Positions 6,087-46,961 of a stretch of DNA of 64,000 nucleotides are shown one piece after another. The DNA is from Actinomycetota bacterium. Its GTDB lineage: Bacteria > Actinomycetota > Humimicrobiia > Humimicrobiales > Humimicrobiaceae. The notes under the pieces are model-generated. The model ran no database searches and was not told where the DNA came from. It saw nothing but the letters and a program-made list of their open reading frames with translations. The stretch is taken from assembly GCA_051744345.1 (NCBI GenBank), contig JBNJCW010000001.1, forward strand, positions 9,498 through 73,497, read 5' to 3'. A program made the position numbers and the translations under genes. How positions within the stretch are numbered: position 1 is the stretch's first letter; every line of letters starts with the position of its first letter.

Positions 6087-9000
6087 TTGGCCATGTTTGA
6101 TAAAGTAGAAGGAAAAGTTAATCTGGTCCAGCTTGAAGAGAAGATACTGGACTTCTGGAGGCAGAATAAGGTTTTTGAAAAAAGCCTGGAGAAAAACAGG
6201 GGCAAAGAGAAATTTGTTTTTTATGAAGGCCCGCCTACAGCAAACGGCGCCCCCGGCGTACACCACGTCCTTTCCAGGGTATTTAAGGATATTTTTCCCA
6301 GGTATAAAACCATGAAAGGTTTCCATGTTCCCAGGAAGGCAGGATGGGATACCCACGGGCTGCCGGTGGAGCTGGAGATTGAGAAAAAGCTTAATATTAA
6401 TTCAAAAAAAGAGATAGAAGAAATAGGCATAGAGAAGTTTAACAAGCTTTGCAAAGAAAGCGTGATGCGTTATGAAGAAGACTGGAAGAAAATGACCGAA
6501 AGGATTGGCTTCTGGATCGACATGGACAATGCCTACTTCACTTTTACAAATGATTATATTGAGAGTGTATGGTGGATACTGAAATCCATATGGGAGAAAG
6601 ATCTGCTGTATCAGGACCATAAAATTGTCCCCTATTGCCCCAGATGCGGAACAGCCTTATCCTCCCATGAGATAGCGCTGGGCTACAAGGAGGTAGAAGA
6701 TAAGACCATAATTGTAAAGTTTGCTTTAAGCGGAAGAAAAAATACTTATCTTTTGGTCTGGACCACTACCCCCTGGACACTTATCTCCAATGTAGCCTGT
6801 GCGGTAAATGAGGCTGCAGCATATGTTGAGGTGGAGTTTGAAGGCCAGAATTTGATATTGGCCAAGGAACTTTTAGGAAATGTTTTCAGCGAAGATGACA
6901 GGTATAAGGTTAAACAGGAGATTAAAGGAAGCAGCCTGGCCGGCAGCACGTATGAGCCGGTATACGATTATGCCGGCCCAAACCAGGGGGCATATAAAGT
7001 GGTAATCGGAGACTTTGTATCAACCGGGGAAGGAACCGGCATTGTCCATATTGCGCCCGCTTTTGGTGAAGATGACATGAATGTGGGCAAGAAATACAAT
7101 CTGCCGGTGGTACAGATGGTAGACGAAGACGGCAAATTTAAACAGCAAGTCAAAAAATTCAGGGGCCAGCAGATTGAAGAGTCAAACCCCCTTATAGTCC
7201 AGGACCTGAAAGAAAGGGGACTTCTTTTTAGTTTTGAAAGGTACAAGCATTCATACCCCTTCTGCTGGAGGTGTGATAGGAGGCTTATATACTATGCCAA
7301 AAAAAGCTGGTATATAAAAACATCAGACATAAAAGAGGATTTAATTAAATCAAATGATCAGGTTAACTGGTATCCCCAGCATATAAAGCATGGCAGGTTC
7401 GGCAAATGGCTGGAAAATAATATTGACTGGGCACTTACCAGGGAAAGGTACTGGGGAACCCCGCTTCCCATATGGGAAGATTCAAAGGGGCACCGCCAGT
7501 GCATTGGGAGCATCCAGGAGCTGAAAGATAAATCAGTACAGGAATTTAACCACCTAGACCTGCACAGGCCGTATGTGGATCAGATAGAAATCAGATGCGA
7601 TAAGTGCGGGGAGAGCATGCACAGGGTTTCAGAGGTGATTGATGTATGGTTCGATTCCGGATCTATGCCCTATGCCCAGTTTAATTACCCTTTCCAGAAC
7701 AGGCAGCTGTTTAAAGAGAGCTTTCCAGCCGACTTTATTTGTGAAGCCATAGACCAGACCAGGGGATGGTTTTATACCCTGCTGGCTATATCTACCCTTC
7801 TGTTTAAAAAATCCTGTTACAAGAATGTATTATGCCTGGGCCTTATAAATGATGAGCACGGCCAGAAAATGAGCAAGTCAAGGGGCAATATAGTAAAGCC
7901 GTGGGAAGTTTTAAATAAGCAGGGAGCAGATGCATTAAGGTGGTATTTCTTTACTGCTGTCTCACCCTGGCTTCCCAAAAACTTCTCCAAGAAAGCTGTA
8001 GATGAAGTGATAAGGAAGTTTTTATTAACTTTATGGAACGTCTATTCATTCTTTGTGATTTATGCAAATATAGATAATTTTAATCCTGATGAGCACAGTA
8101 TAGAGGTAAGCGGCAGGTACGAGATTGACCGGTGGATTATATCCGAGCTAAACCAGACTATAGCAGAAGTAAACAGGCTGATGGATGATTTCAATGTTAC
8201 TGACAGCGGAAGGAAGATACAGAATTTCGTGGATGATCTTTCCAACTGGTATGTAAGGAGAAGCAGGAGAAGATTCTGGAAAAGCGGGGAGGATAAGGAT
8301 AAGATAAGCGCTTACCTGACCCTGTATGAATGCCTGGTAACAGTTTCCAAGCTATGCGCTCCGTATATCCCTTTCATGAGTGAGGAAATATACAAAAATC
8401 TTGTATCAGGAATAAACAAAGAGAAGATAAGCGTGCATCTTGAGGATTACCCCCGGGCAGATGAATCACTTATAGACAAGGATTTGAGTTTTAAAATGTC
8501 TGTGGCAAGGGATATCGTTGGATTGGGAAGAACCATAAGAAATAAGATAAACATTAAGACCAGACAGCCCCTTCAGGCAGCAAAGGTTTACTTTGACTCC
8601 GATGAGCGCATAAGCCAGGCTATCGATCATTTTAAAGGGATCATAAAGGAAGAGCTGAACATAAAAAAGATAGAAATACTGGAAAACAGGGAAGAGCTGG
8701 TTACTTACGACATTAAGCCGAACCTTAAGCTGGTAGGTCCAAAATACGGGCCTATGCTGCCTAAAATAAGGGAGAAGCTGGATGAGGCAAATCCGGCCGT
8801 AATAGCCCTTAAAGTCAGTAACCATAAAAAGGTATCCATGGCTGTGGATGGCAGGCATATAGACCTTGAGCCTGAAGAAATACTGGTAGAGGCCGTAAAT
8901 AAGGACGGTTATGCGATTGAAAGCGATTCGGTATTTACCATAGGAATACCCATCCAAATCCCGGAGGAATTACTGGAGGAAGGGTTTATAAGGGAATTCG

Positions 9001-35975: not shown

Positions 35976-37682
35976 ATGTATGGGAAGCTAGACAGGGATG
36001 CAGTAAAAAAAACATTAGATATTATGCTGGAAACCTTCAAGCAGTCAGAAGAAAATATAAATAACCTAAATGTTTTTCCGGTACCGGATGGAGATACAGG
36101 CACCAATATGCTGCTTACCTTAAAAGCAATTACCGAGGAAATTAATAAGCTAAAAAGCTACAGCCTAAAAAACCTGTCAGAATCAGCTTCCTTCGGTGCC
36201 CTTATGGGTGCAAGAGGCAATTCAGGGGTTATATTGTCACAAATCCTGAAAGGGTTCTTCGACATTATAATGGAACAGGAGGAGCTTGATTTGAATATTT
36301 TAAGGAATGCGCTGGCCTCATCCAGGGAGCTGGCTTACAGCTCGGTACAGAACCCTACAGAAGGAACCATGCTTACCACCATCAAAGATATTCATCAGCT
36401 GGTGGAAGAAATGGCAAATGGAGACGGAGACAGTATAGACTTTTCCAGCTTAATGGATGATATTATCCAGGAAACAGAAAAATCAGTTACCAGAACAACA
36501 TACCTTTTGCCGGTGCTCAAACAGGCAGATGTGGTGGATGCGGGTGCAAAAGGGCTCCTGGTTATAATAAAGGGCTTAAGAAAAGCCCTGCAGGAGATGG
36601 ATGCCATAAAAGGCAGCCTGGTTAAGAGAAAGGGCAAAGAAAAGGCAGTAGCTTCCAGCACAAAAGAAAAAGAACCCCAAAATGCTGCGGTTAACCGTGG
36701 GGAAAACCCCGCCGAGGAATACAGGAATCTGGGGGAGCTGAATGTTTCTTCTGATATAAAATATACTTATTGTACCGAACTTATAGTAAAAGGGGATGGT
36801 ATTAATGTTGAAAGGCTCAAGGAAGCTATTGGAAGTTATGGAGACAGCGCGATGGTGGTAGGGGATAAAAAGCTGGTTAAGATACATGTTCACACCAACC
36901 ATCCCCATAAGGTGCTGCAGAGGTCCCTGAAGGAAGGCACCCTGCATGACATACAGATAAATAATATGGTAGAGCAGAGCAAGCAGGCAAAGGTAGGAGA
37001 AGGCAGGGAGGAAGAGAAGCCGGTTAAAAAAACCAGCATAATGGCGGTGGCTAACGGCGAAGGGCTTTCAGAGATATTTAAAAGTATCGGCACAGACTAT
37101 ATTATTAGCGGTGGCCAGACCATGAATCCTTCAACCTATGACCTGGTGAAGGCAATAAATAATATAAAGGCAGACCGGGTTATAATATTTCCCAATAATA
37201 AAAATATAGTCCCCACTTCCAAGCAGGCAAAAAGGATAGCCAAGAATGAGGTAGTGATAATACCCTCTGAAACAATAGTGCAGGGAATAGCAGCGCTGCT
37301 GAACTTCAACCCTGACCTGGAACTTGATGAAAACATCCATAATATGAATGAAGCCATAAAAACGGTTAAGAGCGGAGAGGTTACCGTAGCTGTAAGGGAT
37401 GCCAACCTGGTGGTTGGGGAGATTAAAAAGGGTGAGTATATCGGTTTGCATGATGGTAAGGTAAGGGTGATTTCAGATAATGTTGTAGATGCTACCCTTG
37501 ACCTTGTAAGGGATATGATTGACGGAGAAGAGGAAGTTCTAACCTTTTATACGGGAAAAGACAGCAAGAAAGAAGAAAGTGAGAGGATAAAGGAAAGGAT
37601 TGGCAAAAATTTTCCCGACCTGGAGATAGAATTCCACAACGGCGGACAGCCTTTATACCCATACATATTTTCTATAGAATAA
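35976..37682 (+). CDS. yloV: DAK2 domain fusion protein YloV (dihydroxyacetone kinase-like)
   Basis: DGDTGTNM Dak2 motif at the N-terminus, 568 aa. Divergent from rpmB as in Bacillus. Confidence 0.85.
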   Translation: MYGKLDRDAVKKTLDIMLETFKQSEENINNLNVFPVPDGDTGTNMLLTLKAITEEINKLKSYSLKNLSESASFGALMGARGNSGVILSQILKGFFDIIMEQEELDLNILRNALASSRELAYSSVQNPTEGTMLTTIKDIHQLVEEMANGDGDSIDFSSLMDDIIQETEKSVTRTTYLLPVLKQADVVDAGAKGLLVIIKGLRKALQEMDAIKGSLVKRKGKEKAVASSTKEKEPQNAAVNRGENPAEEYRNLGELNVSSDIKYTYCTELIVKGDGINVERLKEAIGSYGDSAMVVGDKKLVKIHVHTNHPHKVLQRSLKEGTLHDIQINNMVEQSKQAKVGEGREEEKPVKKTSIMAVANGEGLSEIFKSIGTDYIISGGQTMNPSTYDLVKAINNIKADRVIIFPNNKNIVPTSKQAKRIAKNEVVIIPSETIVQGIAALLNFNPDLELDENIHNMNEAIKTVKSGEVTVAVRDANLVVGEIKKGEYIGLHDGKVRVISDNVVDATLDLVRDMIDGEEEVLTFYTGKDSKKEESERIKERIGKNFPDLEIEFHNGGQPLYPYIFSIE

Positions 37683-37699
37683 TAAACCGGTGGTAAGAA

Positions 37700-38251
37700 A
37701 TTAGAATAATTTCCGGCAAGTTTAAAGGCAGAAAACTAAAGATTCCTTCAAGCCTGGATATAAGGCCCACCCAGGACCGGGTAAAAGAGAGTATTTTCAA
37801 TGTTATAGGTAGAGATATATGCGGAAAGAAGGTGCTGGACCTGTTTGCAGGAAGTGGTTCGCTGGGCCTGGAATCTTTAAGCAGGGGAGCCCAGTTAGTC
37901 TATTTTACCGACAGAAGCCTTAAAGCAGTAAAACTTATAAGGTATAATATTAATAGTTTCCATATCGGCAGCAATAATTATAAAATAATTAGGGAAGATG
38001 CAGTAAGATTTCTGGAGAAGTTCACCGATATCAGGTGGGATATTGTTTTTGTAGACCCTCCATACAGGGTGGCAGAGGGGGTTATGGAAAAAGTCTTTGA
38101 AAGGCTGGCTGAAAAAAGGGTAACTTCTTCCCGGACACTTATTGTCTATCAGTATTTTTTTAAAAAAAATATAGACCTGGAAATAAAAAAGCTTAATATA
38201 GTAAAAGAATCTTCTTTCGGGGACAAGAAGGTCACATATTTAACACCTTAA
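37700..38251 (+). CDS. rsmD: 16S rRNA (guanine966-N2)-methyltransferase RsmD; no in-frame ATG/GTG/TTG start (probable ATT start)
   Basis: The frame is open from 37697. Translation (I)RIISGKFKGRKLKIPSSLDIRPTQDRVKESIFN...LDLFAGSGSLG matches the RsmD N-terminus. The ORF-track GTG at 37832 would delete about 44 conserved residues. Confidence 0.75.
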   Translation: MRIISGKFKGRKLKIPSSLDIRPTQDRVKESIFNVIGRDICGKKVLDLFAGSGSLGLESLSRGAQLVYFTDRSLKAVKLIRYNINSFHIGSNNYKIIREDAVRFLEKFTDIRWDIVFVDPPYRVAEGVMEKVFERLAEKRVTSSRTLIVYQYFFKKNIDLEIKKLNIVKESSFGDKKVTYLTP

Positions 38252-38263
38252 AGAAAGGGCTTT

Positions 38264-38758
38264 ATGGAAAAGATTGCAATCTGCCCCGGCACATATGACC
38301 CTATAACCGAAGGACACAGGGATATAATAGTCAGGTGTTCAAAGATATTTTACCGGGTTATAGTAGCGGTTTCCAATAACAGGAGGAAAAGGCCCCTTTA
38401 TTCTGTGGAAAAAAGGATTCATTTTGTAAAGAAGGCTCTTGGTAATATGGAGCGGGTACAGGTTTTGGCTTTTGACCAGCTGCTGGTGGAACTGGCCAGG
38501 GAGGTTAATGCCAGGGTCATTGTAAAAGGCCTTAGGGCAATATCGGATTTTGAATATGAATTTCAAATGGCCCAGATAAATAAAAAGCTAAACCGGGAGG
38601 CGGAGACCATGTTTCTTATGACCAACCCCAAATATGCATACTTAAGTTCCAGCGCAGTAAAGGAAATAGCGGCATTAGGGGGTTGCATTAAAGGCCTGGT
38701 TCCTCCTGAAATTGAGGGTGAGATAATCAATTCTTTTAAAAACAATAAATTTGATTAA
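38264..38758 (+). CDS. coaD: Phosphopantetheine adenylyltransferase
   Basis: AICPGTYDPITEGHRDII nucleotidyltransferase motif, 164 aa. Confidence 0.9.
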   Translation: MEKIAICPGTYDPITEGHRDIIVRCSKIFYRVIVAVSNNRRKRPLYSVEKRIHFVKKALGNMERVQVLAFDQLLVELAREVNARVIVKGLRAISDFEYEFQMAQINKKLNREAETMFLMTNPKYAYLSSSAVKEIAALGGCIKGLVPPEIEGEIINSFKNNKFD

Positions 38759-38777
38759 GGAAAATGGAGTGTGAGGT

Positions 38778-39236
38778 ATGGATGCTTTGGAAATGATAGA
38801 TAAGATTGAGGAAATGGTGGAAAAGAGTAAGAAACTTCCCTTCTCGTCAAATGCCATAATCAATGAGAATGAAATATACGATCTGCTTGATGAGCTCCGC
38901 AGCGTTTTACCGGAAGAGCTTAAGCAGGCAAGGTGGATTGTAAAGGAAAGGGAGGGAATGATAGAAGAGGCAAAAAGGCAGTCTTTAAGCATAGTAAAAG
39001 AAGCCGAAGAAAGGGGCAGAACCCTGGTTAGCGAAACAGAGGTTTTAAAGAACGCAAACAAGAAAGCCGAAGAACTTATGGCAATGGTTGAAGCCAAGGC
39101 CAGGACCATAAGGCTTGAGGCTGAGGATTACGCAGATGAAAAACTGGCTAATCTGGAAGCAGTCCTGCATAAACTCCTGTCTGCGGTAGAGAAGGGCAGG
39201 GAGCAATTCAAGGCTACCCTCAAGTCAGAAAACTAA
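38778..39236 (+). CDS. Hypothetical coiled-coil protein (ATPase b/E-subunit-like or DivIVA-like low-complexity helix)
   Basis: 152 aa, predominantly a charged heptad-like helix. It occupies the position upstream of rpmF where a YceD/DUF177 gene is usual. Confidence 0.5.
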   Translation: MDALEMIDKIEEMVEKSKKLPFSSNAIINENEIYDLLDELRSVLPEELKQARWIVKEREGMIEEAKRQSLSIVKEAEERGRTLVSETEVLKNANKKAEELMAMVEAKARTIRLEAEDYADEKLANLEAVLHKLLSAVEKGREQFKATLKSEN

Positions 39237-39327
39237 GATTGAATTAATAATTTTTTATGTTATAGTATTATGTTTGTTTGTGCTTATAACAAGTTTGTAA
39301 CATTTCATACTAGGAGGTATTAATAAA

Positions 39328-39516
39328 ATGGCGGTTCCTAAAAGAAGGACAAGCAGCAGCAAAAGGGATAAGCGGAGGAGCCACGATGGTTTAAAGGCTG
39401 TAAATATAGTAGATTGTCCCCGTTGCCACAGCAAGAAACTGGCACATCATGTGTGTGAAAGTTGCGGGTATTACAATAATCAGGAAATAATAGAATTGGA
39501 AACAGAGAAAAAATAA
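39328..39516 (+). CDS. rpmF: 50S ribosomal protein L32
   Basis: MAVPKRRTSSSKRDKRRSH... with a CPRCH..CESCG zinc ribbon. GGAGG RBS. Confidence 0.9.
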   Translation: MAVPKRRTSSSKRDKRRSHDGLKAVNIVDCPRCHSKKLAHHVCESCGYYNNQEIIELETEKK

Positions 39517-39541: not shown

Positions 39542-41650
39542 ATGGTGAGTTTGGATAGTTTATTTTGCCCCTCTTCTGTGGCTGTAATAGGAGCTTCGAG
39601 GGAAAGTGGAAAAGTAGGCAATACCATCCTTAACAATATCATAAACTCTCAGTTTGAAGGTAAAATATTTCCCATAAACCCCAAGTCAGATATAGTCCAT
39701 GGATTAAAATGCTACAGCTCAATTTTGGATGTTCCCCAGGATGTCGACCTTGCAGTTATTGTAATCCCGGGCAAATATGTTCTGCCTGTACTGGATGAAT
39801 GCTCAAAAAAAAATGTGAAGGCGGCGATAATTATTTCTGCCGGCTTTAAGGAGGTCGGTAGAGAGGGAGCAAGACTGGAAATGGAGCTGGTCAAAAAGGC
39901 CAAAGAATACGGAATAAGGGTGCTGGGACCTAATTGCCTGGGGATGATTGATACCTCATGCCCCCTGGATGCCTCATTTTCCCCTACTTTTCCCGGCCCA
40001 GGCGCTATAAGCTTTATATCACAGTCTGGTGCCCTGGGCACTTCTGTGCTGGACTGGGCTAAATTTGCCAATATAGGAATCTCCAAATTCGTATCCCTGG
40101 GAAACAAATCAGATATTTCAGAAAATGACTGTATCAAATACATGAAAGATGATGACAGCTGCAGGGTGATTACCGCATACATTGAAGGGGTAAAGGACGG
40201 AAGGGATTTTATAGATATTTGCAAGGAGGTTTCCAAACATAAACCCATAATTGTGGTAAAGGCAGGAAACACCAGCGCAGGAGCAAAGGCGGTATCTTCA
40301 CATACCGGCACACTGGCGGGTTCGGGAGCGGCCTATACGGCGTCCTTTAAACAGTCCGGCATCATAAGGGCTAATACCATAAAAAATCTGTTTGATTATG
40401 CCAATACTTTTGCAAATCAACCATTGCCTAATGGCAAAAAAGTTGCAATAATAACAAATGCAGGGGGACCAGGAATAATGGCCACTGATGCTTGTGAGGA
40501 AAGAGATATTCCGCTGGCTACTTTGGATAAGGAAACTATAGAAAAGTTGAAAGGGTTCCTACCGGCTGCAGCCAATTTCTATAACCCGGTAGATGTTCTG
40601 GGAGATGCAGGTCCAGACAGGTACCAGAAAACCCTGGAGGTTGTTTTAGATGATAAAAGTGTGGAAGCGGTGATAGTTATATTGACCCCGCAGGCAGTTA
40701 CCCAGCCATACAAGACGGCGCAGGCTATTGTTGAGGAACTTGAAGACTGCAAGGAAAAGGTCCCGCTGATAACCTGTTTTATGGGAGGTTCAGCCGTACA
40801 GAAAGGAATAAAATACCTTAGGGACAACGGCATACCAAACTATGATATTCCCGAATCAGCGGTGGGAACGTTAAGGGTTATGTTTGAATACAGTGAATGG
40901 AAAAACAAAAAAACCGCTGCGGTTAAAGAATTTAAAGCCGACAGGCAGAAGGTAAGAGACCTTTTTAAGCAAAGGATAGAGGAAGGAAGATACGATCTGG
41001 GGGAAATGGAAGCAAGGACAGTTCTTGAAGCTTACAGCATTGCCATACCAAAAGCGGAGCTTGCAAGAGATATAGACGAAGCCAAAAAGATAGCGGAAAA
41101 AATTGGCTTTCCGGTGGTTTTAAAGATTGTATCTCCAAATATACTGCACAAAACAGATGTTGGCGGCATCAAGGTAGGCATAAATAGCCAGGAGGAGCTA
41201 GTCGAGGAATTCGAACAGATGCTGTGGAATGTAAAAAGGTATATGCCTGATGCCAACATCAAGGGAATTTTAGTACAGGAAATGATCCAGTCAAAGAAGG
41301 AGACAATTATAGGCATAAACAATGATCCTCAGTTCGGCCCTATGATAATGTTCGGGCTGGGGGGAATATATGTTGAAGTGCTAAAGGATGTTTCATTCAG
41401 GATTGCTCCCATTACCAACGATGATGCAGTGGAGATGATTAATGAGATAAAGGCTGTAAAACTGCTTAGAGGTGCAAGGGGGGAGACTCCTTCTGATATT
41501 GACAGCATTGTTGATGTGCTTGTGAGGATTTCTCAGCTGGTAATGGATTTTCCTGAAATTATTGAAATGGATATAAATCCGCTGTTTGTAAAGAAAAAAG
41601 GCGAGGGCTCAATAGCTGGTGATGTTAGAATAAGAATAGGTGAAAATTAA
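39542..41650 (+). CDS. Acetyl-CoA synthetase (ADP-forming), fused alpha/beta (NDP-forming acyl-CoA synthetase)
   Basis: The N-terminal CoA-binding domain starts VAVIGASRESGKVG. A succinyl-CoA-synthetase-like flavodoxin domain and a C-terminal ATP-grasp domain follow. Length 702 aa. Confidence 0.8.
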   Translation: MVSLDSLFCPSSVAVIGASRESGKVGNTILNNIINSQFEGKIFPINPKSDIVHGLKCYSSILDVPQDVDLAVIVIPGKYVLPVLDECSKKNVKAAIIISAGFKEVGREGARLEMELVKKAKEYGIRVLGPNCLGMIDTSCPLDASFSPTFPGPGAISFISQSGALGTSVLDWAKFANIGISKFVSLGNKSDISENDCIKYMKDDDSCRVITAYIEGVKDGRDFIDICKEVSKHKPIIVVKAGNTSAGAKAVSSHTGTLAGSGAAYTASFKQSGIIRANTIKNLFDYANTFANQPLPNGKKVAIITNAGGPGIMATDACEERDIPLATLDKETIEKLKGFLPAAANFYNPVDVLGDAGPDRYQKTLEVVLDDKSVEAVIVILTPQAVTQPYKTAQAIVEELEDCKEKVPLITCFMGGSAVQKGIKYLRDNGIPNYDIPESAVGTLRVMFEYSEWKNKKTAAVKEFKADRQKVRDLFKQRIEEGRYDLGEMEARTVLEAYSIAIPKAELARDIDEAKKIAEKIGFPVVLKIVSPNILHKTDVGGIKVGINSQEELVEEFEQMLWNVKRYMPDANIKGILVQEMIQSKKETIIGINNDPQFGPMIMFGLGGIYVEVLKDVSFRIAPITNDDAVEMINEIKAVKLLRGARGETPSDIDSIVDVLVRISQLVMDFPEIIEMDINPLFVKKKGEGSIAGDVRIRIGEN

Positions 41651-41664
41651 GAGAGGAGGCAAAT

Positions 41665-42729
41665 ATGTTCCCTTTGTTTTTCATTTCGAATAAGCCTTAT
41701 TCCGGTAAGAGTTCAATGTGCGTGGGATTGGGCAAAAAGTTTGCGGCTGACGGCCTGAAGGTGGGCTATATGAAACCTGTCGGTACTTTACCCATCAGGG
41801 AAGGGGGAATTACTACCGATGAAGATGCCCAGTACATTTCAGGGATTCTGAATGTAAAAGATGACCTGGAAAACATTTCACCTATTGTGATGACCCAGCA
41901 GTATATAAGGCAGGGCCTCAGGGAAAACAAATTTGGGGAAGATTTTCTGGATACCATACATAAGTCATATCAGCAGATAAGCAAGAATAAGGACGTTGTC
42001 GTTTTAGAAGGGGCAAAAAGTGTAGAGGACGGCTACTTCTTAGGTGTTTCATCACGGGAGATCTGCTGCAGGCTGGGAGCAAAAGCCATACTGGTTATGA
42101 GGTATTGCTCGGAGATAATTGACCAGATACTTTATGCCAGAGAGTTTTTAAATGATTGTTTCGGGGGAGTTATAATAAACTGGGTTCCCCGGAGCCAGAT
42201 TGAATTTTTAACAGAGCTTGTATTGCCCTTCCTTAAGAAGAAGTCGGTTAATGTATATGGGTATATACCCTCTAACAAAATACTTTCTTCGGTAAGCATA
42301 AGAGAGATGTCCCAGCATCTGGACGGCCAGATTATATGTGCTGAGGACAAGATTGATGAACTGGTAGAATCCTTTATGGTTGGGGCTATGGGCCAGGAAC
42401 AGGCCTTAAAATTTTTCAGGAGAAAGGCCAATAAGGCTGTAATTACCGGAGGAGATAGAGCGGATGTACAATTGGCTGCACTTGAAACTCCGACCAAATG
42501 CCTGATACTTACCGGAAATTTCCAGCCCAGCAGCGTGGTTCTAGGACGTGCAGAGGAACTGGGCATCCCTATGATACTGGTAAATTATGATACCCTTACC
42601 GCAGTGGAGAAGGTCGAAGAAATAATAGGGCATGTTAGATTCCATGAAATCAAAAAAATTGATAAAATAGTTGAAGTAATAAAAGAGTGCATAGATACAG
42701 AAGCCCTGCTGCAGCTGGCAAAAAAATAA
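41665..42729 (+). CDS. DRTGG domain protein resembling the N-terminal regulatory half of class II phosphotransacetylase (BioD/CobQ-like P-loop fold plus DRTGG)
   Basis: The N-terminus NKPYSGKSSMCVGL resembles a dethiobiotin-synthetase-like nucleotide-binding fold. AVITGGDRADVQLAA matches the DRTGG motif. There is no PTA_PTB catalytic domain. Length 354 aa. Confidence 0.65.
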   Translation: MFPLFFISNKPYSGKSSMCVGLGKKFAADGLKVGYMKPVGTLPIREGGITTDEDAQYISGILNVKDDLENISPIVMTQQYIRQGLRENKFGEDFLDTIHKSYQQISKNKDVVVLEGAKSVEDGYFLGVSSREICCRLGAKAILVMRYCSEIIDQILYAREFLNDCFGGVIINWVPRSQIEFLTELVLPFLKKKSVNVYGYIPSNKILSSVSIREMSQHLDGQIICAEDKIDELVESFMVGAMGQEQALKFFRRKANKAVITGGDRADVQLAALETPTKCLILTGNFQPSSVVLGRAEELGIPMILVNYDTLTAVEKVEEIIGHVRFHEIKKIDKIVEVIKECIDTEALLQLAKK

Positions 42730-42750: not shown

Positions 42751-43758
42751 GTGGAATCTGGTAAGTACAGCATAGTAATAGATGCCATGGGTGGAGACTA
42801 TGCACCCCATGAGGTCATAAAGGGCGCAGATAAGGCTGCCTCCCTGGATGATGTCGAGGTACTGTTGGCGGGAAACAGGCAGAAAATAGAGAAGGCTGCA
42901 TCTGAATTAGGCATATCCCTGGATAAAATGAAAATAATAGAGGCTGGCCAGGAAATATCCATGGACCAGTCCCCTTCCTACGTTCTAAAGCACGGTAAGG
43001 ATTCATCCATTTTTAAAGGTACTGCAGCTGTTGCCGGGCTGGGCAGCGGCGCATTCCTTTCAGCAGGAAACACCGGGGCAGTAATGGCCTGTTCTCTCTT
43101 TAATATGAAGAGGATTGAAGGGGTGTTAAGGCCGGCAATTGCGGTGGTTATCCCCATAGGAATAAAAAACCTGGTTTTACTGGATGCGGGAGCTAATGTT
43201 GACTGCAAGCCCCAGTACCTGGAACAGTTTGCCCTTATGGGCAAGATTTATGCACAGAATATTATAGGCCTACAGGATCCTGCGGTTGGGCTTCTAAATA
43301 TTGGGTCTGAAGAAAAAAAGGGTAATGAATTAACCATTGAGGCTTACAAACTGCTAAAACAGGCAGATATTAATTTTACTGGAAATGTGGAAGGCAGGGA
43401 TTTGTTTGAGGGTGCTGTAGATATTGCAATTTGTGATGGATTTATTGGCAATATACTATTAAAATCTATAGAAGGACTGGCAGGACTTCTTTTCAGCGAG
43501 CTAAAAAGTGTGCTGACCAAGAATATAATTAATAAACTGATGGCCCTGGGCCTGAAGAAATCGCTCAAGGGAATGAAAAAGAAGTTTGACTATGAAGAGT
43601 ATGGAGGGGCTTATCTTTTGGGAATAAATGGAATAACCATAATATCTCATGGCAGTTCCAAGGAAAAAGCTATATATAATGCGGCAAAAGTTGCTTACGG
43701 AGGAATAAAGGCAGACCTGGTAGGCAAATTAAAACAGGAAATAAAAAGTAAATCATAA
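42751..43758 (+). CDS. plsX: Phosphate acyltransferase PlsX
   Basis: IVIDAMGGDYAP N-terminus, GTG start, 335 aa. Confidence 0.9.
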   Translation: MESGKYSIVIDAMGGDYAPHEVIKGADKAASLDDVEVLLAGNRQKIEKAASELGISLDKMKIIEAGQEISMDQSPSYVLKHGKDSSIFKGTAAVAGLGSGAFLSAGNTGAVMACSLFNMKRIEGVLRPAIAVVIPIGIKNLVLLDAGANVDCKPQYLEQFALMGKIYAQNIIGLQDPAVGLLNIGSEEKKGNELTIEAYKLLKQADINFTGNVEGRDLFEGAVDIAICDGFIGNILLKSIEGLAGLLFSELKSVLTKNIINKLMALGLKKSLKGMKKKFDYEEYGGAYLLGINGITIISHGSSKEKAIYNAAKVAYGGIKADLVGKLKQEIKSKS

Positions 43759-43770
43759 TCGGGAGGTATA

Positions 43771-44004
43771 ATGGAGAATTTCGAAAAACTGAAGGAAATA
43801 CTTGTTGATGTTTTGGGGGCAAAGGAAGAGGATGTAACCCCGGAAAGCAAGTTTGTGGATGACCTTGGTGCAGATTCTCTTGATCTTGTGGAACTTATAA
43901 TGTCTTTTGAAGACAAGTTTGGTATTGAAATAAGTGATGAGGAAGCTGAAAAGCTGGAGGCAGTCCAGGATGCCTTAAACTACATAGATAAGCATGCAAA
44001 ATAA
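43771..44004 (+). CDS. acpP: Acyl carrier protein
   Basis: [14 protein letters not shown] phosphopantetheine attachment site. Confidence 0.9.
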
Positions 44005-44750: not shown

Positions 44751-46961
44751 TTGTATTTAAAGACTATTACTCTCCGCGGTTTTAAATCATTTAAATCTAA
44801 AAGCACTCTTACCTTTGAGCCGGGCATAAGCGTGGTTGTGGGCCCTAACGGCAGCGGCAAAAGCAATATTGCCGATGCAATATCCTGGGTTTTAGGGGAA
44901 CAAAGCCCCAAATCCCTTAGGGGGAGCAGCATGGGTGATGTAATTTTTAGAAACAGGCAGGAAGAGATGGGGATAGCAGAAGTATCCCTTGTTTTTGATA
45001 ACCGGGACAGGACCATAGATCTTGATTTTAGTGATGTGAGGATTACGCGCAGGGTTTATTTGGAGGGCGGCAGTGACTACTTTATAAACAGCTCTCCCAC
45101 CAGGCTTATGGATATCCAGGATTTGCTTGCTGCCACCGGTATAGGCAAGGGGCTTTATACAATAATAAATCAGGGACAGATAAATGAAATAGCAATGCTC
45201 AAACCGGTTGAAAGAAAATTGATAATTGATGAAGTGGTGGGTATCGCCAAGCACAAGAACAGGAGGGATAAGGCCCTTTTAAAGCTGGGAAGGGTAAAAG
45301 AGGATATTGGCCGTATTGATGATTTGCTGGAAGAGATAAAGAGGACCATGGTTCCCCTGGAAGTGGAAGCCGGCAAGGCCAGGGAGTATTCAGGGGTATT
45401 AAACCAGCTAAAGAGTGAGGAGATATCCTTTTTTATGAGTGAGTTGAACCGGCTTAATGAAGCCTGGAAAGAAAAGAACGAAGAAGAGGCAAGCCTGAGG
45501 AAAAAGCAGGAGGAATCAGGGGAGGAACTGGCCAGGCAGACAGAAAAGTATAATAATTACAAAAATGAAATCTCAGAGAAACTCAGCCAGTACCGTTATT
45601 GGGAGAATACGGTCAGCAGGCTGGAACATGAAACAGGGCGCCTTGATAATATGCTGGAGCTTATCTTTAGCAAGGTTAATGTATTTTCCACCCTGTCTAA
45701 TATGTTTGATAGAAAGACAGCAACCCCGGAACAAAAAAAAGGTGATTCCGTATACCGGAGGCTGAAGGATTTACAGATGCTGGTGCATGATTATACTGGC
45801 AAGGTTGCAAAGATTCTTTCCGGATACAATAGAGCCGGAGAAATTGACAGCCAGGCAAGAGATATCCACCAGAAAATTAACCAGCTGCTGGATTTATTCC
45901 GAGAGGACATGCAAAAAGAACAGAAAAAAGAAGAAAGGCAAAAGATAAACCTTGTATTCAGGCAGGCCTGCATTAAGAATTTAAAAAAAGCCAAAAAACT
46001 TTTAGGGATTGTAGAGGCTTTCAAAAAGAGGGCGCACAGCCTGGAAGAAAGAATTTATCCGCATTTTAAGGAGGTAAAAAAAGATGTTGAACAGGAAAGG
46101 GCATTAATTGATCAGCTGGGAAAAAAACTTAATGAAATAAGGATGGAGAATAACAGCATAGAAAACAAGCTTTACAGGCACAAGCTGGATAAGGAACAGA
46201 TAAAGGAAAAAACCGAAAACATAACTACCTACATTGTGGACAACTATAATCTTTCTATTGACTACATACTTAAAAATTACGAGGCCTCCGGGGATATTGA
46301 GAGGAGCCAGAGGAATATAAGCAGGCTTAAAAAAAAGGTTAAGGAATTCGGGAACATAAACCCCAATGCATCCATTGAATATGAGAGGATAAAAAAAAGG
46401 TACGATTTTTTAAACAGCCAAAGAAATGACCTGGTGGAAAGTAAAGGCAAGCTTGAAAAATTAATAGAGGATGTAGAGAAGCAGATAATGGAGGCTTTCC
46501 TGCAGAAATTCGAGCAGATTAATAAAAGTTTTAGCTATTATTTTAAGATACTGTTCCCTGTTGGGGAGGGAGAACTCATGCTGCTGTCAGAAGATGGCGG
46601 CAGCGAGTTTGGAGTTGACCTTAAAGTAGATATAGGTAATAATAAATTTGTTCCGTTATCATTGTTATCAGGTGGTGAGAAGACTTTAGTTTCCATAGCT
46701 TTTTTATTTTCCATATTTTCAACAAATTTATCCCCATTTTATGTTTTTGATGAAGCAGATGCTGCGCTGGATGATGTAAATATTGACCGGTTCCTGTCTC
46801 TGGTAAGAAAATTTGCTGAAAGGCAGCAAATAATACTGATAACCCACCAGAAAAAAACAATGGAAATAGCAGATACTATTTATGGGGTTAGCATGCAGTC
46901 AGACGGGGTATCAAAGATAGTGTCTGAGAAGATAAGTGATAATTATGCAAAAACTAATTAA
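44751..46961 (+). CDS. smc: SMC-family chromosome partition protein, unusually short (736 aa) with no recognisable hinge
   Basis: Canonical SMC N-head (LRGFKSFKSK...VVGPNGSGKSNIADAISWVLGEQS), C-head LSGGEKTLVSIAFLFSIF and Walker B FYVFDEADAALD. Canonical rnc-smc-ftsY position. TTG start. Confidence 0.75.
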   Translation: MYLKTITLRGFKSFKSKSTLTFEPGISVVVGPNGSGKSNIADAISWVLGEQSPKSLRGSSMGDVIFRNRQEEMGIAEVSLVFDNRDRTIDLDFSDVRITRRVYLEGGSDYFINSSPTRLMDIQDLLAATGIGKGLYTIINQGQINEIAMLKPVERKLIIDEVVGIAKHKNRRDKALLKLGRVKEDIGRIDDLLEEIKRTMVPLEVEAGKAREYSGVLNQLKSEEISFFMSELNRLNEAWKEKNEEEASLRKKQEESGEELARQTEKYNNYKNEISEKLSQYRYWENTVSRLEHETGRLDNMLELIFSKVNVFSTLSNMFDRKTATPEQKKGDSVYRRLKDLQMLVHDYTGKVAKILSGYNRAGEIDSQARDIHQKINQLLDLFREDMQKEQKKEERQKINLVFRQACIKNLKKAKKLLGIVEAFKKRAHSLEERIYPHFKEVKKDVEQERALIDQLGKKLNEIRMENNSIENKLYRHKLDKEQIKEKTENITTYIVDNYNLSIDYILKNYEASGDIERSQRNISRLKKKVKEFGNINPNASIEYERIKKRYDFLNSQRNDLVESKGKLEKLIEDVEKQIMEAFLQKFEQINKSFSYYFKILFPVGEGELMLLSEDGGSEFGVDLKVDIGNNKFVPLSLLSGGEKTLVSIAFLFSIFSTNLSPFYVFDEADAALDDVNIDRFLSLVRKFAERQQIILITHQKKTMEIADTIYGVSMQSDGVSKIVSEKISDNYAKTN

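Follow-up and report, generated by a model that had tools for sequence, protein, structure and literature searches.

A stand-alone protein resembling the N-terminal region of phosphotransacetylase is encoded in a conserved two-gene module with ADP-forming acetyl-CoA synthetase

Why would the gene for an acetyl-CoA synthetase of the ADP-forming type (ACS) be followed almost immediately by a gene whose product resembles only the N-terminal half of phosphotransacetylase (Pta), an enzyme to which ACS is not homologous? The question is raised by a locus between rpmF and plsX in a 64,000-nucleotide (nt) stretch of DNA from an Actinomycetota bacterium of the Humimicrobiaceae (GenBank assembly GCA_051744345.1, contig JBNJCW010000001.1, positions 9,498 to 73,497 of the forward strand), called the window throughout. 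An earlier note on this DNA had described the two open reading frames (ORFs), their order and the 14-nt gap between them, all of which are present in the ORF table, and had suggested that the second gene encodes a trans-acting regulator of acetate and ATP formation. We found that the two genes constitute a conserved two-gene module, which is laid out in the window as follows (aa, amino acids):

39542..41650, + strand: fused alpha-beta ADP-forming acyl/acetyl-CoA synthetase (ACS, also abbreviated ACD), 702 aa (ORF table, domains, models)
41651..41664, + strand: 14-nt spacer between the ACS gene and the DRTGG gene, with the Shine-Dalgarno sequence GAGAGGAGG (sequence inspection)
41665..42729, + strand: stand-alone Pta-N-terminal-like (PtaN-like, DRTGG) protein, 354 aa (domains, profiles, fold)
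41680..42288, + strand: BioD-like AAA_26 nucleotide-binding domain, aa 6-208 of the PtaN-like protein (AAA_26, 1.2e-18)
41701-41712, + strand: P-loop S13-G14-K15-S16 of the PtaN-like protein, inside the AAA_26 domain
42310..42621, + strand: DRTGG domain, aa 216-319 of the PtaN-like protein (PF07085, 102.8 bits against a cutoff of 25.2; 1.1e-29)

The neighbourhood of the PtaN-like gene was compared across the best 80 of 574 relatives, taken as one genome per GTDB species and ranked by similarity to the 354-aa protein alone; the search query was a 24-sequence alignment (A3), as a 66-sequence alignment (A2) was too divergent. Loci with at least 600 nt of upstream sequence were considered testable (73 loci), and a pair was scored when a full-length ACS gene lay directly upstream, on the same strand and at a distance of no more than 700 nt. 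The pair was found in 68 of the 73 testable loci, with ACS one or two genes off in two further loci. The spacing is tight (median gap 21 nt); an overlap of at least 1 nt, mostly of 4 nt as is typical of translational coupling, is present in 11 of 53 pairs. Pairs are present in Actinomycetota, Chloroflexota (including Chloroflexus, Chloroploca and Oscillochloris), Planctomycetota (Brocadia), Armatimonadota, Elusimicrobia, Acidobacteriota and Poribacteria, in one deltaproteobacterium and in six Methanosarcinales/Methanobacteriota archaea. When neighbouring ORFs were clustered, ACS was the sole cluster common to several phyla (68 loci), every other cluster being limited to at most 19 loci and consisting of lineage-specific housekeeping genes; no third conserved gene was found beside the pair in any phylum, and none of the 80 loci contained a pta or ackA homologue. 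The pairwise distances of the ACS and DRTGG proteins correlate (Pearson 0.89, Spearman 0.54). In a comparison directed at co-transfer, the Planctomycetota pairs had identical nearest out-groups for both genes, and the archaeal pairs showed flat identities to all bacterial groups.

Because the adjacency recurs in 68 of the 73 testable loci of other species, it is not a matter of chance, and we take it as strong evidence that both genes share a function. Neighbour conservation had been set beforehand as the check that could refute the pairing, and what it returned was a co-oriented pair kept across phyla and across both domains. Full-text literature searches turned up no paper describing the ACS-DRTGG pair, also when the second gene was taken as a DRTGG/BioD-like 'phosphotransacetylase family protein', in line with the earlier impression that the pairing had not been characterised. 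Two kinds of variant locus were also seen. In two genomes, one from Elusimicrobia and one from Acidobacteriota (L033, 8215-9834; L075, 4314-5982), one or two unrelated genes, which by eye look like a membrane protease and a transporter, lie between the ACS and PtaN-like genes, with the orientation kept. At the edge of an Anaerolineae contig (L042, 26-1201 and 1450-2586) there are tandem copies of the PtaN-like gene, and an upstream ACS gene, if any, would be off the contig.

The 702-aa product of the first gene carries the CoA_binding_2 (8.5e-25), Succ_CoA_lig (2.9e-53), Ligase_CoA_2 (1.4e-14) and ATP-grasp_5 (4.1e-85) domains over aa 12-699 and passes the acetate--CoA ligase alpha model TIGR02717 (AcCoA-syn-alpha; 608.8 bits against a cutoff of 567.15), which bears out its identification as a fused alpha/beta ADP-forming ACS. 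It scored below the cutoffs of NF045493 (4-hydroxybutyrate-CoA ligase; 735.7 against 1300) and of the 3-hydroxypropionate and Archaeoglobus acetate equivalog models. In the ACS of A. fulgidus the domains are in the reverse order; consistent with this difference, the match of the window protein's alpha region to the 665-position Archaeoglobus model NF045494 is confined to positions 218-663. The closest solved relative is 8wzu (Nmar_0206, an ADP-forming 4-hydroxybutyrate-CoA ligase; 2.5e-181). Both catalytic histidines are intact, with SSHTGTLAG aligning with the H256 loop of 8wzu and ILHKTDVGG with H535, the positions that serve as phosphohistidines of the swinging loop and of the ATP-grasp domain, respectively, in the ACD mechanism (PMC11494057). 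Given the full domain set and the two conserved phosphohistidines, the protein is, as judged from its sequence, a catalytically competent ADP-forming acyl/acetyl-CoA synthetase, and its substrate is most likely acetate.

The same five-subdomain organisation and phosphohistidines are found in the characterised ACDs, namely Nmar_0206 (8WZU), the Ca. Korarchaeum ACD (4XYL) and the C. aurantiacus ACD (Schmidt & Schonheit 2013, as cited in PMC7414198); in these studies the enzymes were examined alone and a partner protein is unmentioned. The window ACS passes the acetate-type model TIGR02717, yet its nearest sequence among them is the 4-hydroxybutyrate-CoA ligase. Genomes of the Chloroflexus group (L081, L082, L072-L076) carry the ACS-DRTGG pair as the window does. 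With regard to the possibility that ACS takes the place of Pta-AckA, a tblastn search of the 64-kb window gave no match, whether the query was AckA or the catalytic domain of E. coli Pta. The idea also fits related Actinomycetota, since the clades UBA1414, UBA9087 and RBG-13-55-18 have no pta/ack and have acd in nearly all genomes (PMC7325909).

The 354-aa protein consists of the AAA_26 and DRTGG domains listed above and no more. It matched the 708-position Pta model NF004167 only over positions 5-369 (121 bits against a cutoff of 418) and is colinear with E. coli Pta from aa 1 to about aa 385, ending where the catalytic domain would start. Domain search and tblastn detected no PTA_PTB domain in the protein and no remnant of one downstream or elsewhere in the window. 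The protein is thus not a Pta, since it lacks the catalytic domain, and the description of it as the N-terminal half of Pta (P-loop fold plus DRTGG) without the PTA domain holds by domain search, profile and colinearity alike. An AlphaFold (AF2) model (pLDDT 81) used in a Foldseek search retrieved 2ioj (the AF1212 DRTGG domain; 42% identity, 2.5e-10, TMt 0.83), the dethiobiotin synthetases 1dts (BioD) and 3of5, and the N-domain of E. coli Pta (7t85, TMt 0.69); in a sequence search against solved structures, 2ioj (AF_1212) was likewise the best match of the DRTGG half (8e-30). The protein is not a BioD either, as it falls below the cutoff of the BioD model TIGR00347 (28.4 against 83.3 bits) and has only the framework of the nucleotide site in common with it. 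An exhaustive, profile-free search with the 354-aa protein gave 452 clusters of relatives at 50% identity (E<1e-30), and nearly all of the best 150 of these are 350-360 aa long; no relatives were found in viral contigs. The family is labelled 'phosphotransacetylase family protein' by NCBI and 'BioD-like phosphotransacetylase family protein' by JGI, and the nearest homologues carry the names Candidatus Hydromicrobium, Humimicrobiaceae or 'Actinomycetota bacterium', by which the window belongs to the class Candidatus Humimicrobiia. In length (about 350-360 aa), in its AAA_26 plus DRTGG architecture and in its position directly 3' of a fused ACS gene, the window protein fits the ACS-linked orthologous group.

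The nucleotide site of the PtaN-like protein is highly conserved. Among 48 ACS-linked orthologues from all phyla, G14, K15, K37, D54 and N172 are invariant, as are the DRTGG motif T261-G-G-D-R265 and residues D267, T283 and G284, while S/T16 is present in 43 and E115 in 40; the residues of the nucleotide site and of the DRTGG motif are under purifying selection. The BioD-like domain also holds D52, E115-G116 and N172. An hhalign comparison with E. coli BioD (probability 94.8%, E 5e-8) paired K15, S16, K37, D54, E115 and N172 with BioD K15, T16, K37, D54, E115 and N175, respectively, and these BioD residues are the P-loop, phosphate/carbamate-binding, Mg-ligand and adenine-contact residues. Given this intact BioD-type site, the stand-alone protein probably binds a nucleotide and may hydrolyse it. 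The earlier note had drawn a parallel with the N-terminal region of enterobacterial Pta, which senses NADH, pyruvate and phosphoenolpyruvate (PEP). The architectural part of that parallel stands; the sensor part is imperfect, because the P-loop reads YSGKSS in the 354-aa protein and SVGLTS in E. coli Pta, where the lysine has been lost. The window protein may therefore be a binder or hydrolyser of ATP and not a sensor of NADH, pyruvate or PEP.

In this part of the Actinomycetota the module lies within a larger cluster, for which the following features were identified in the window:

39239..39271, + strand: promoter-like sites 5' of rpmF (TTGAAT-16-TATAGT with a TG extension, and an overlapping site; weak consensus evidence)
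39328..39516, + strand: rpmF, ribosomal protein L32, 62 aa (ORF table; Ribosomal_L32p, 9.1e-26)
42751..43758, + strand: plsX, phosphate acyltransferase, 335 aa (FA_synthesis, 8.7e-98; TIGR00182, 335.6 bits against a cutoff of 243.4)
43771-44004, + strand: acpP, followed by rnc, smc and ftsY

The genes from rpmF to plsX are on one strand, with gaps of 25 nt (rpmF/ACS), 14 nt (ACS/DRTGG gene) and 21 nt (DRTGG gene/plsX). A purine-rich ribosome-binding sequence precedes every downstream start of the cluster, the G+C content is even throughout the region, and no terminator-like hairpin was seen at the junctions between rpmF, ACS, the DRTGG gene and plsX, all terminator-like matches being intragenic. 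In this branch of the Actinomycetota the module is probably co-transcribed with the rpmF-plsX-acpP cluster. The order rpmF-ACS-DRTGG is found in 24 species-level Actinomycetota genomes, in which rpmF is 2.1-2.3 kb 5' of the DRTGG gene and whose labels include Humimicrobiaceae, Coriobacteriia, Anaerosomatales, Geothermincolia and Acidimicrobiales. In 24 of 74 loci, each of them from Actinomycetota, plsX directly follows the DRTGG gene, and it is missing from three loci with the rpmF-ACS-DRTGG order (L019-L021); as its adjacency is confined to this phylum, plsX stands outside the conserved module. The entry of the module into the rpmF-plsX cluster was therefore an early event in this part of the Actinomycetota. 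Insertion between rpmF and plsX, as the earlier note had it, describes the layout well but is not particular to this genome, being common to 24 Actinomycetota species. A recent insertion of ACS in this genome was considered and ruled out by the same distribution, the relatives that lack ACS representing secondary losses.

Several known systems resemble the module in part. In class IIa Pta (E. coli/Salmonella; 7T85) a BioD-like P-loop fold followed by a DRTGG domain, colinear with the whole 354-aa protein, is fused to an acetate-node enzyme that acts in the interconversion of acetyl-CoA, and this N-terminal region is regulatory and oligomerising (PMC12724200). By contrast, the 354-aa protein is free-standing, lacks PTA_PTB, is encoded beside a non-homologous ACD, scores low against the Pta model and keeps the P-loop lysine. 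The nearest solved DRTGG domain is that of AF_1212 from A. fulgidus (PDB 2IOJ, a structural-genomics entry of unknown function), whose locus tag is next to that of AF_1211, one of the two acetate-CoA ligases of that organism (PMC8359953); adjacency and orientation are read here from the locus tags alone, and the deposited chain comprises 139 aa and DRTGG only, compared with 354 aa in the window. The regulatory insert of CBS-pyrophosphatase (3L2B/3L31) contains the same DRTGG fold within a module that responds to adenine nucleotides, but there the nucleotides bind the CBS domains and not DRTGG, a BioD-like domain is absent and the module is fused into the enzyme.

Stand-alone forms are also found in other settings. 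DVU3031 of Desulfovibrio vulgaris, the only experimentally examined stand-alone member of the family that we found in the literature, has AAA and DRTGG domains without PTA_PTB, like the 354-aa protein. It sits in a lactate-oxidation operon beside pta-ack (PMC4481167) and shows a fitness defect on L-lactate (PMC10102598). Its neighbours are pta, ack, PFOR and lactate dehydrogenases and not, as in the window, an ADP-forming ACS; it is a deltaproteobacterial protein of a different subfamily, outside the 80 best relatives of the window protein. Short or split AAA_26/DRTGG genes of cyanobacterial type follow ebsA (T4P_EbsA) in four of four loci:

L085, 3095-4593: cyanobacterial-type, ebsA-linked AAA_26/DRTGG locus
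L088, 5256-6567: cyanobacterial-type, ebsA-linked AAA_26/DRTGG locus
L090, 4855-6378: cyanobacterial-type, ebsA-linked AAA_26/DRTGG locus
L091, 755-2223: cyanobacterial-type, ebsA-linked AAA_26/DRTGG locus

An acetyl-CoA synthetase of the AMP-forming type (Acs) is near the cyanobacterial-type gene only in L085. A sensor of the acetate node in general, with AMP-forming Acs as a further partner, is what this one locus might suggest, but it was rejected for want of recurrence: ebsA is the neighbour in four of four loci and Acs in one. With DVU3031 and the cyanobacterial forms in other contexts, the link to ACS is a property of the subfamily and not of the whole family.

How, then, might the two proteins of the module work together? 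We favour, with somewhat better than even confidence, the explanation that the PtaN-like protein is a dedicated accessory partner of ACS, probably a regulatory one. The first gene would catalyse acetyl-CoA + ADP + Pi <-> acetate + ATP + CoA by way of two phosphohistidines. The second would supply a dedicated accessory protein homologous to the entire non-catalytic N-terminal region of class IIa Pta, which would oligomerise through its DRTGG domain, bind an adenine nucleotide in the intact BioD-type P-loop site and associate with ACS, tuning the rate or direction of acetate and ATP formation. Such tuning would be a trans version of the job that the fused N-terminal domain does in Pta. We infer from the conserved pairing and the intact site that the protein would contact ACS physically, bind a ligand and exert a regulatory effect, of whichever sign, and the trans-acting role proposed in the earlier note is plausible. 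A bolder version, which we offer only tentatively, is that the PtaN-like protein is an active, nucleotide-driven partner of ACS, which would gate the enzyme as a BioD/SIMIBI-type ATPase or phosphotransfer protein and would not be a passive sensor. Gating could, for example, set direction (ATP-yielding acetate formation as opposed to acetate activation), or an ATP-dependent assembly could switch ACS on.

A number of observations count against a dedicated partner. Three lineages (L002, L017 and L078) have lost ACS independently and kept the DRTGG gene. The rpmF-DRTGG spacer of L002 still contains the final 39-44 codons of ACS (7865-7981; ...DIIEMKINSL...GDVRIRI and the stop codon), and a shorter remnant of the ACS 3' end lies in the same place in L017 (about 8838-8909); L078 has no ACS remnant. 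The losses are independent, since ACS is still present in L014, the closest relative of L002 (DRTGG protein 84% identical). None of the three lineages has a shortened DRTGG ORF, and each keeps all of the 16 key residues that were checked, which suggests that the function of the protein is not strictly tied to an adjacent ACS; these genomes have either another ACS elsewhere or an ACS-independent role for the DRTGG protein. The distant stand-alone relatives also occur in other contexts (DVU3031 by pta-ack, the cyanobacterial forms after ebsA). Rosetta-stone support is lacking, as no ACS-DRTGG fusion was found among the 68 pairs. Shared phylogeny accounts for part of the mirror-tree correlation, the Spearman coefficient being only 0.54. 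The searchable literature contains no report of an interaction between a PtaN-like protein and ACS, of ligand binding or of a kinetic effect. Finally, the recombinant ACDs of A. fulgidus and C. aurantiacus are active without a partner, so the PtaN-like protein is not needed for catalysis. It was also observed that rpmF of the ACS-less loci L002 (7559-7855) and L017 (8307-8696) encodes a protein with a long Lys/Ala/Glu-rich C-terminal extension (98 and 129 aa, compared with 62 aa in the window).

The retention of an intact gene after three independent losses of ACS would be in keeping with the 354-aa protein being an autonomous enzyme, an ATP-using member of the BioD/CobQ/PyrG class that transfers a phosphoryl group to a carboxyl-type group in the same pathway as ACS. 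We consider this unlikely, though worth keeping in view, and it is likewise doubtful that the protein, instead of binding ACS, would act on a substrate such as an acetate-node metabolite of the acyl or acyl-phosphate kind. The BioD-type catalytic and metal residues, which are invariant or nearly so in the orthologues and align to those of BioD, speak for an enzyme, as does the absence of the P-loop lysine from E. coli Pta, whose domain is regulatory; in addition, the paralogue DVU3031 has an L-lactate fitness phenotype of its own (PMC10102598). Against these points, the protein is under the cutoff of the BioD model (28.4 against 83.3 bits), no candidate substrate or second-substrate pocket was identified, and 8 of the 48 orthologues have R, G or D in place of E115. 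The other known settings of DRTGG are all regulatory or oligomerisation regions (CBS-pyrophosphatase, Pta), and the tight operon coupling to ACS alone fits a subunit-like role equally well. The matches of the fold search to MinD, FleN and HypB, SIMIBI ATPases that act as nucleotide-dependent dimer switches, suggest a different possibility, rather improbable in our view, in which the PtaN-like protein is a scaffold or assembly factor that tethers ACS to, for example, an acetyl-CoA-producing oxidoreductase or sets its oligomeric state, and the nucleotide site is a SIMIBI-type dimerisation switch and not a metabolic sensor. It would be in keeping with this that the Pta N-terminal region is required for oligomerisation (PMC12724200) and that DRTGG domains make dimer interfaces in CBS-pyrophosphatase (literature). 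However, neither a third gene conserved with the pair in any phylum nor a membrane or partner-binding motif in the protein was seen.

Two further explanations can largely be set aside. PlsX shares a Pta-like fold, and one could suppose that it is the true partner, with the PtaN-like protein and PlsX forming a split analogue of class II Pta beside an incidental ACS. In support of this, the next gene downstream is plsX in 24 of 74 loci, PlsX weakly matches phosphate acetyl/butyryl-transferase models, and the adjacency persists in L002 (where the order is rpmF-DRTGG-plsX) and L017 after the loss of ACS. The adjacency is, however, absent from all of the Chloroflexota, Planctomycetota, archaeal and other loci, which keep ACS; plsX is also missing from L019-L021, and L078 has neither ACS nor plsX adjacent. 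Since rpmF-plsX is a widespread ancestral gene pair, insertion of the module into it explains the adjacency of PlsX, and with a distribution confined to Actinomycetota and with L002 carrying the vestige of a deleted ACS, this explanation is largely refuted and we regard it as very improbable. That the 354-aa ORF is the pseudogene of a truncated class II pta, or stands next to ACS by chance, has next to no probability. The match to only the N-terminal half of the Pta model is what such a pseudogene would show, but plsX starts 21 nt past the stop codon and no PTA_PTB remnant is left in the window, the relatives form 452 clusters of which almost all of the best 150 are 350-360 aa, the motifs are invariant across phyla and ACS is present in 68 of 73 loci. 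Truncation and chance were both rejected on these grounds, and the earlier note, which had seen no PTA remnant downstream, was right to doubt a truncated pta.

Upstream of rpmF the window contains a FakA-like gene, rsmD, coaD and a gene for a 152-aa protein without a family match. The last of these (38778-39236; no Pfam match) is the gene directly 5' of rpmF, and it is conserved in this slot in 17 Actinomycetota loci; the slot is the one that YceD/DUF177 has in many bacteria. Genes of lipid and CoA metabolism flank the module on both sides (35976-39236 and 42751-44004: FakA-like fatty-acid kinase subunit, coaD, plsX and acpP), and the interval from plsX to acpP is without fabD and fabG. This setting hints at a possible link of acetyl-CoA supply to lipid synthesis in this lineage. 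Further downstream, the SMC homologue (44751-46961) is 736 aa long, compared with 772 aa in L001 and 785 aa in L002; a 1,125-aa ORF occupies the corresponding position in L078. Bacterial SMC proteins are typically about 1,180 aa, and the coiled coil may be much shortened in this lineage. The 3' end of smc overlaps the start of ftsY at 46936.

ADP-forming ACS is a single-step, ATP-conserving exit from acetyl-CoA that is used by many archaea, by subsurface Actinomycetota without Pta-AckA, by Chloroflexus and by anammox bacteria. To our knowledge all studies have treated it as a stand-alone enzyme, and we know of no regulation of it. The presence of a partner gene in at least seven bacterial phyla and in Methanosarcinales suggests an overlooked layer of control or assembly on an energy-conserving step of anaerobic carbon flow. 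What is new here, at the level of sequence comparison, is the Pta N-terminal module as a separate protein beside a non-homologous enzyme of the acetate node. The function of the BioD-like plus DRTGG region of class II Pta has, as far as we know, been unclear for decades, because the region and its enzyme form one fused protein. An orthologue that is free-standing and whose nucleotide site is intact, together with a well-behaved recombinant enzyme, offers a simple two-protein system in which to address this question. If the PtaN-like protein does prove to be a nucleotide-driven partner of ACS, it would reveal an ancestral, still-catalytic function of the class II Pta N-terminal domain and DRTGG.

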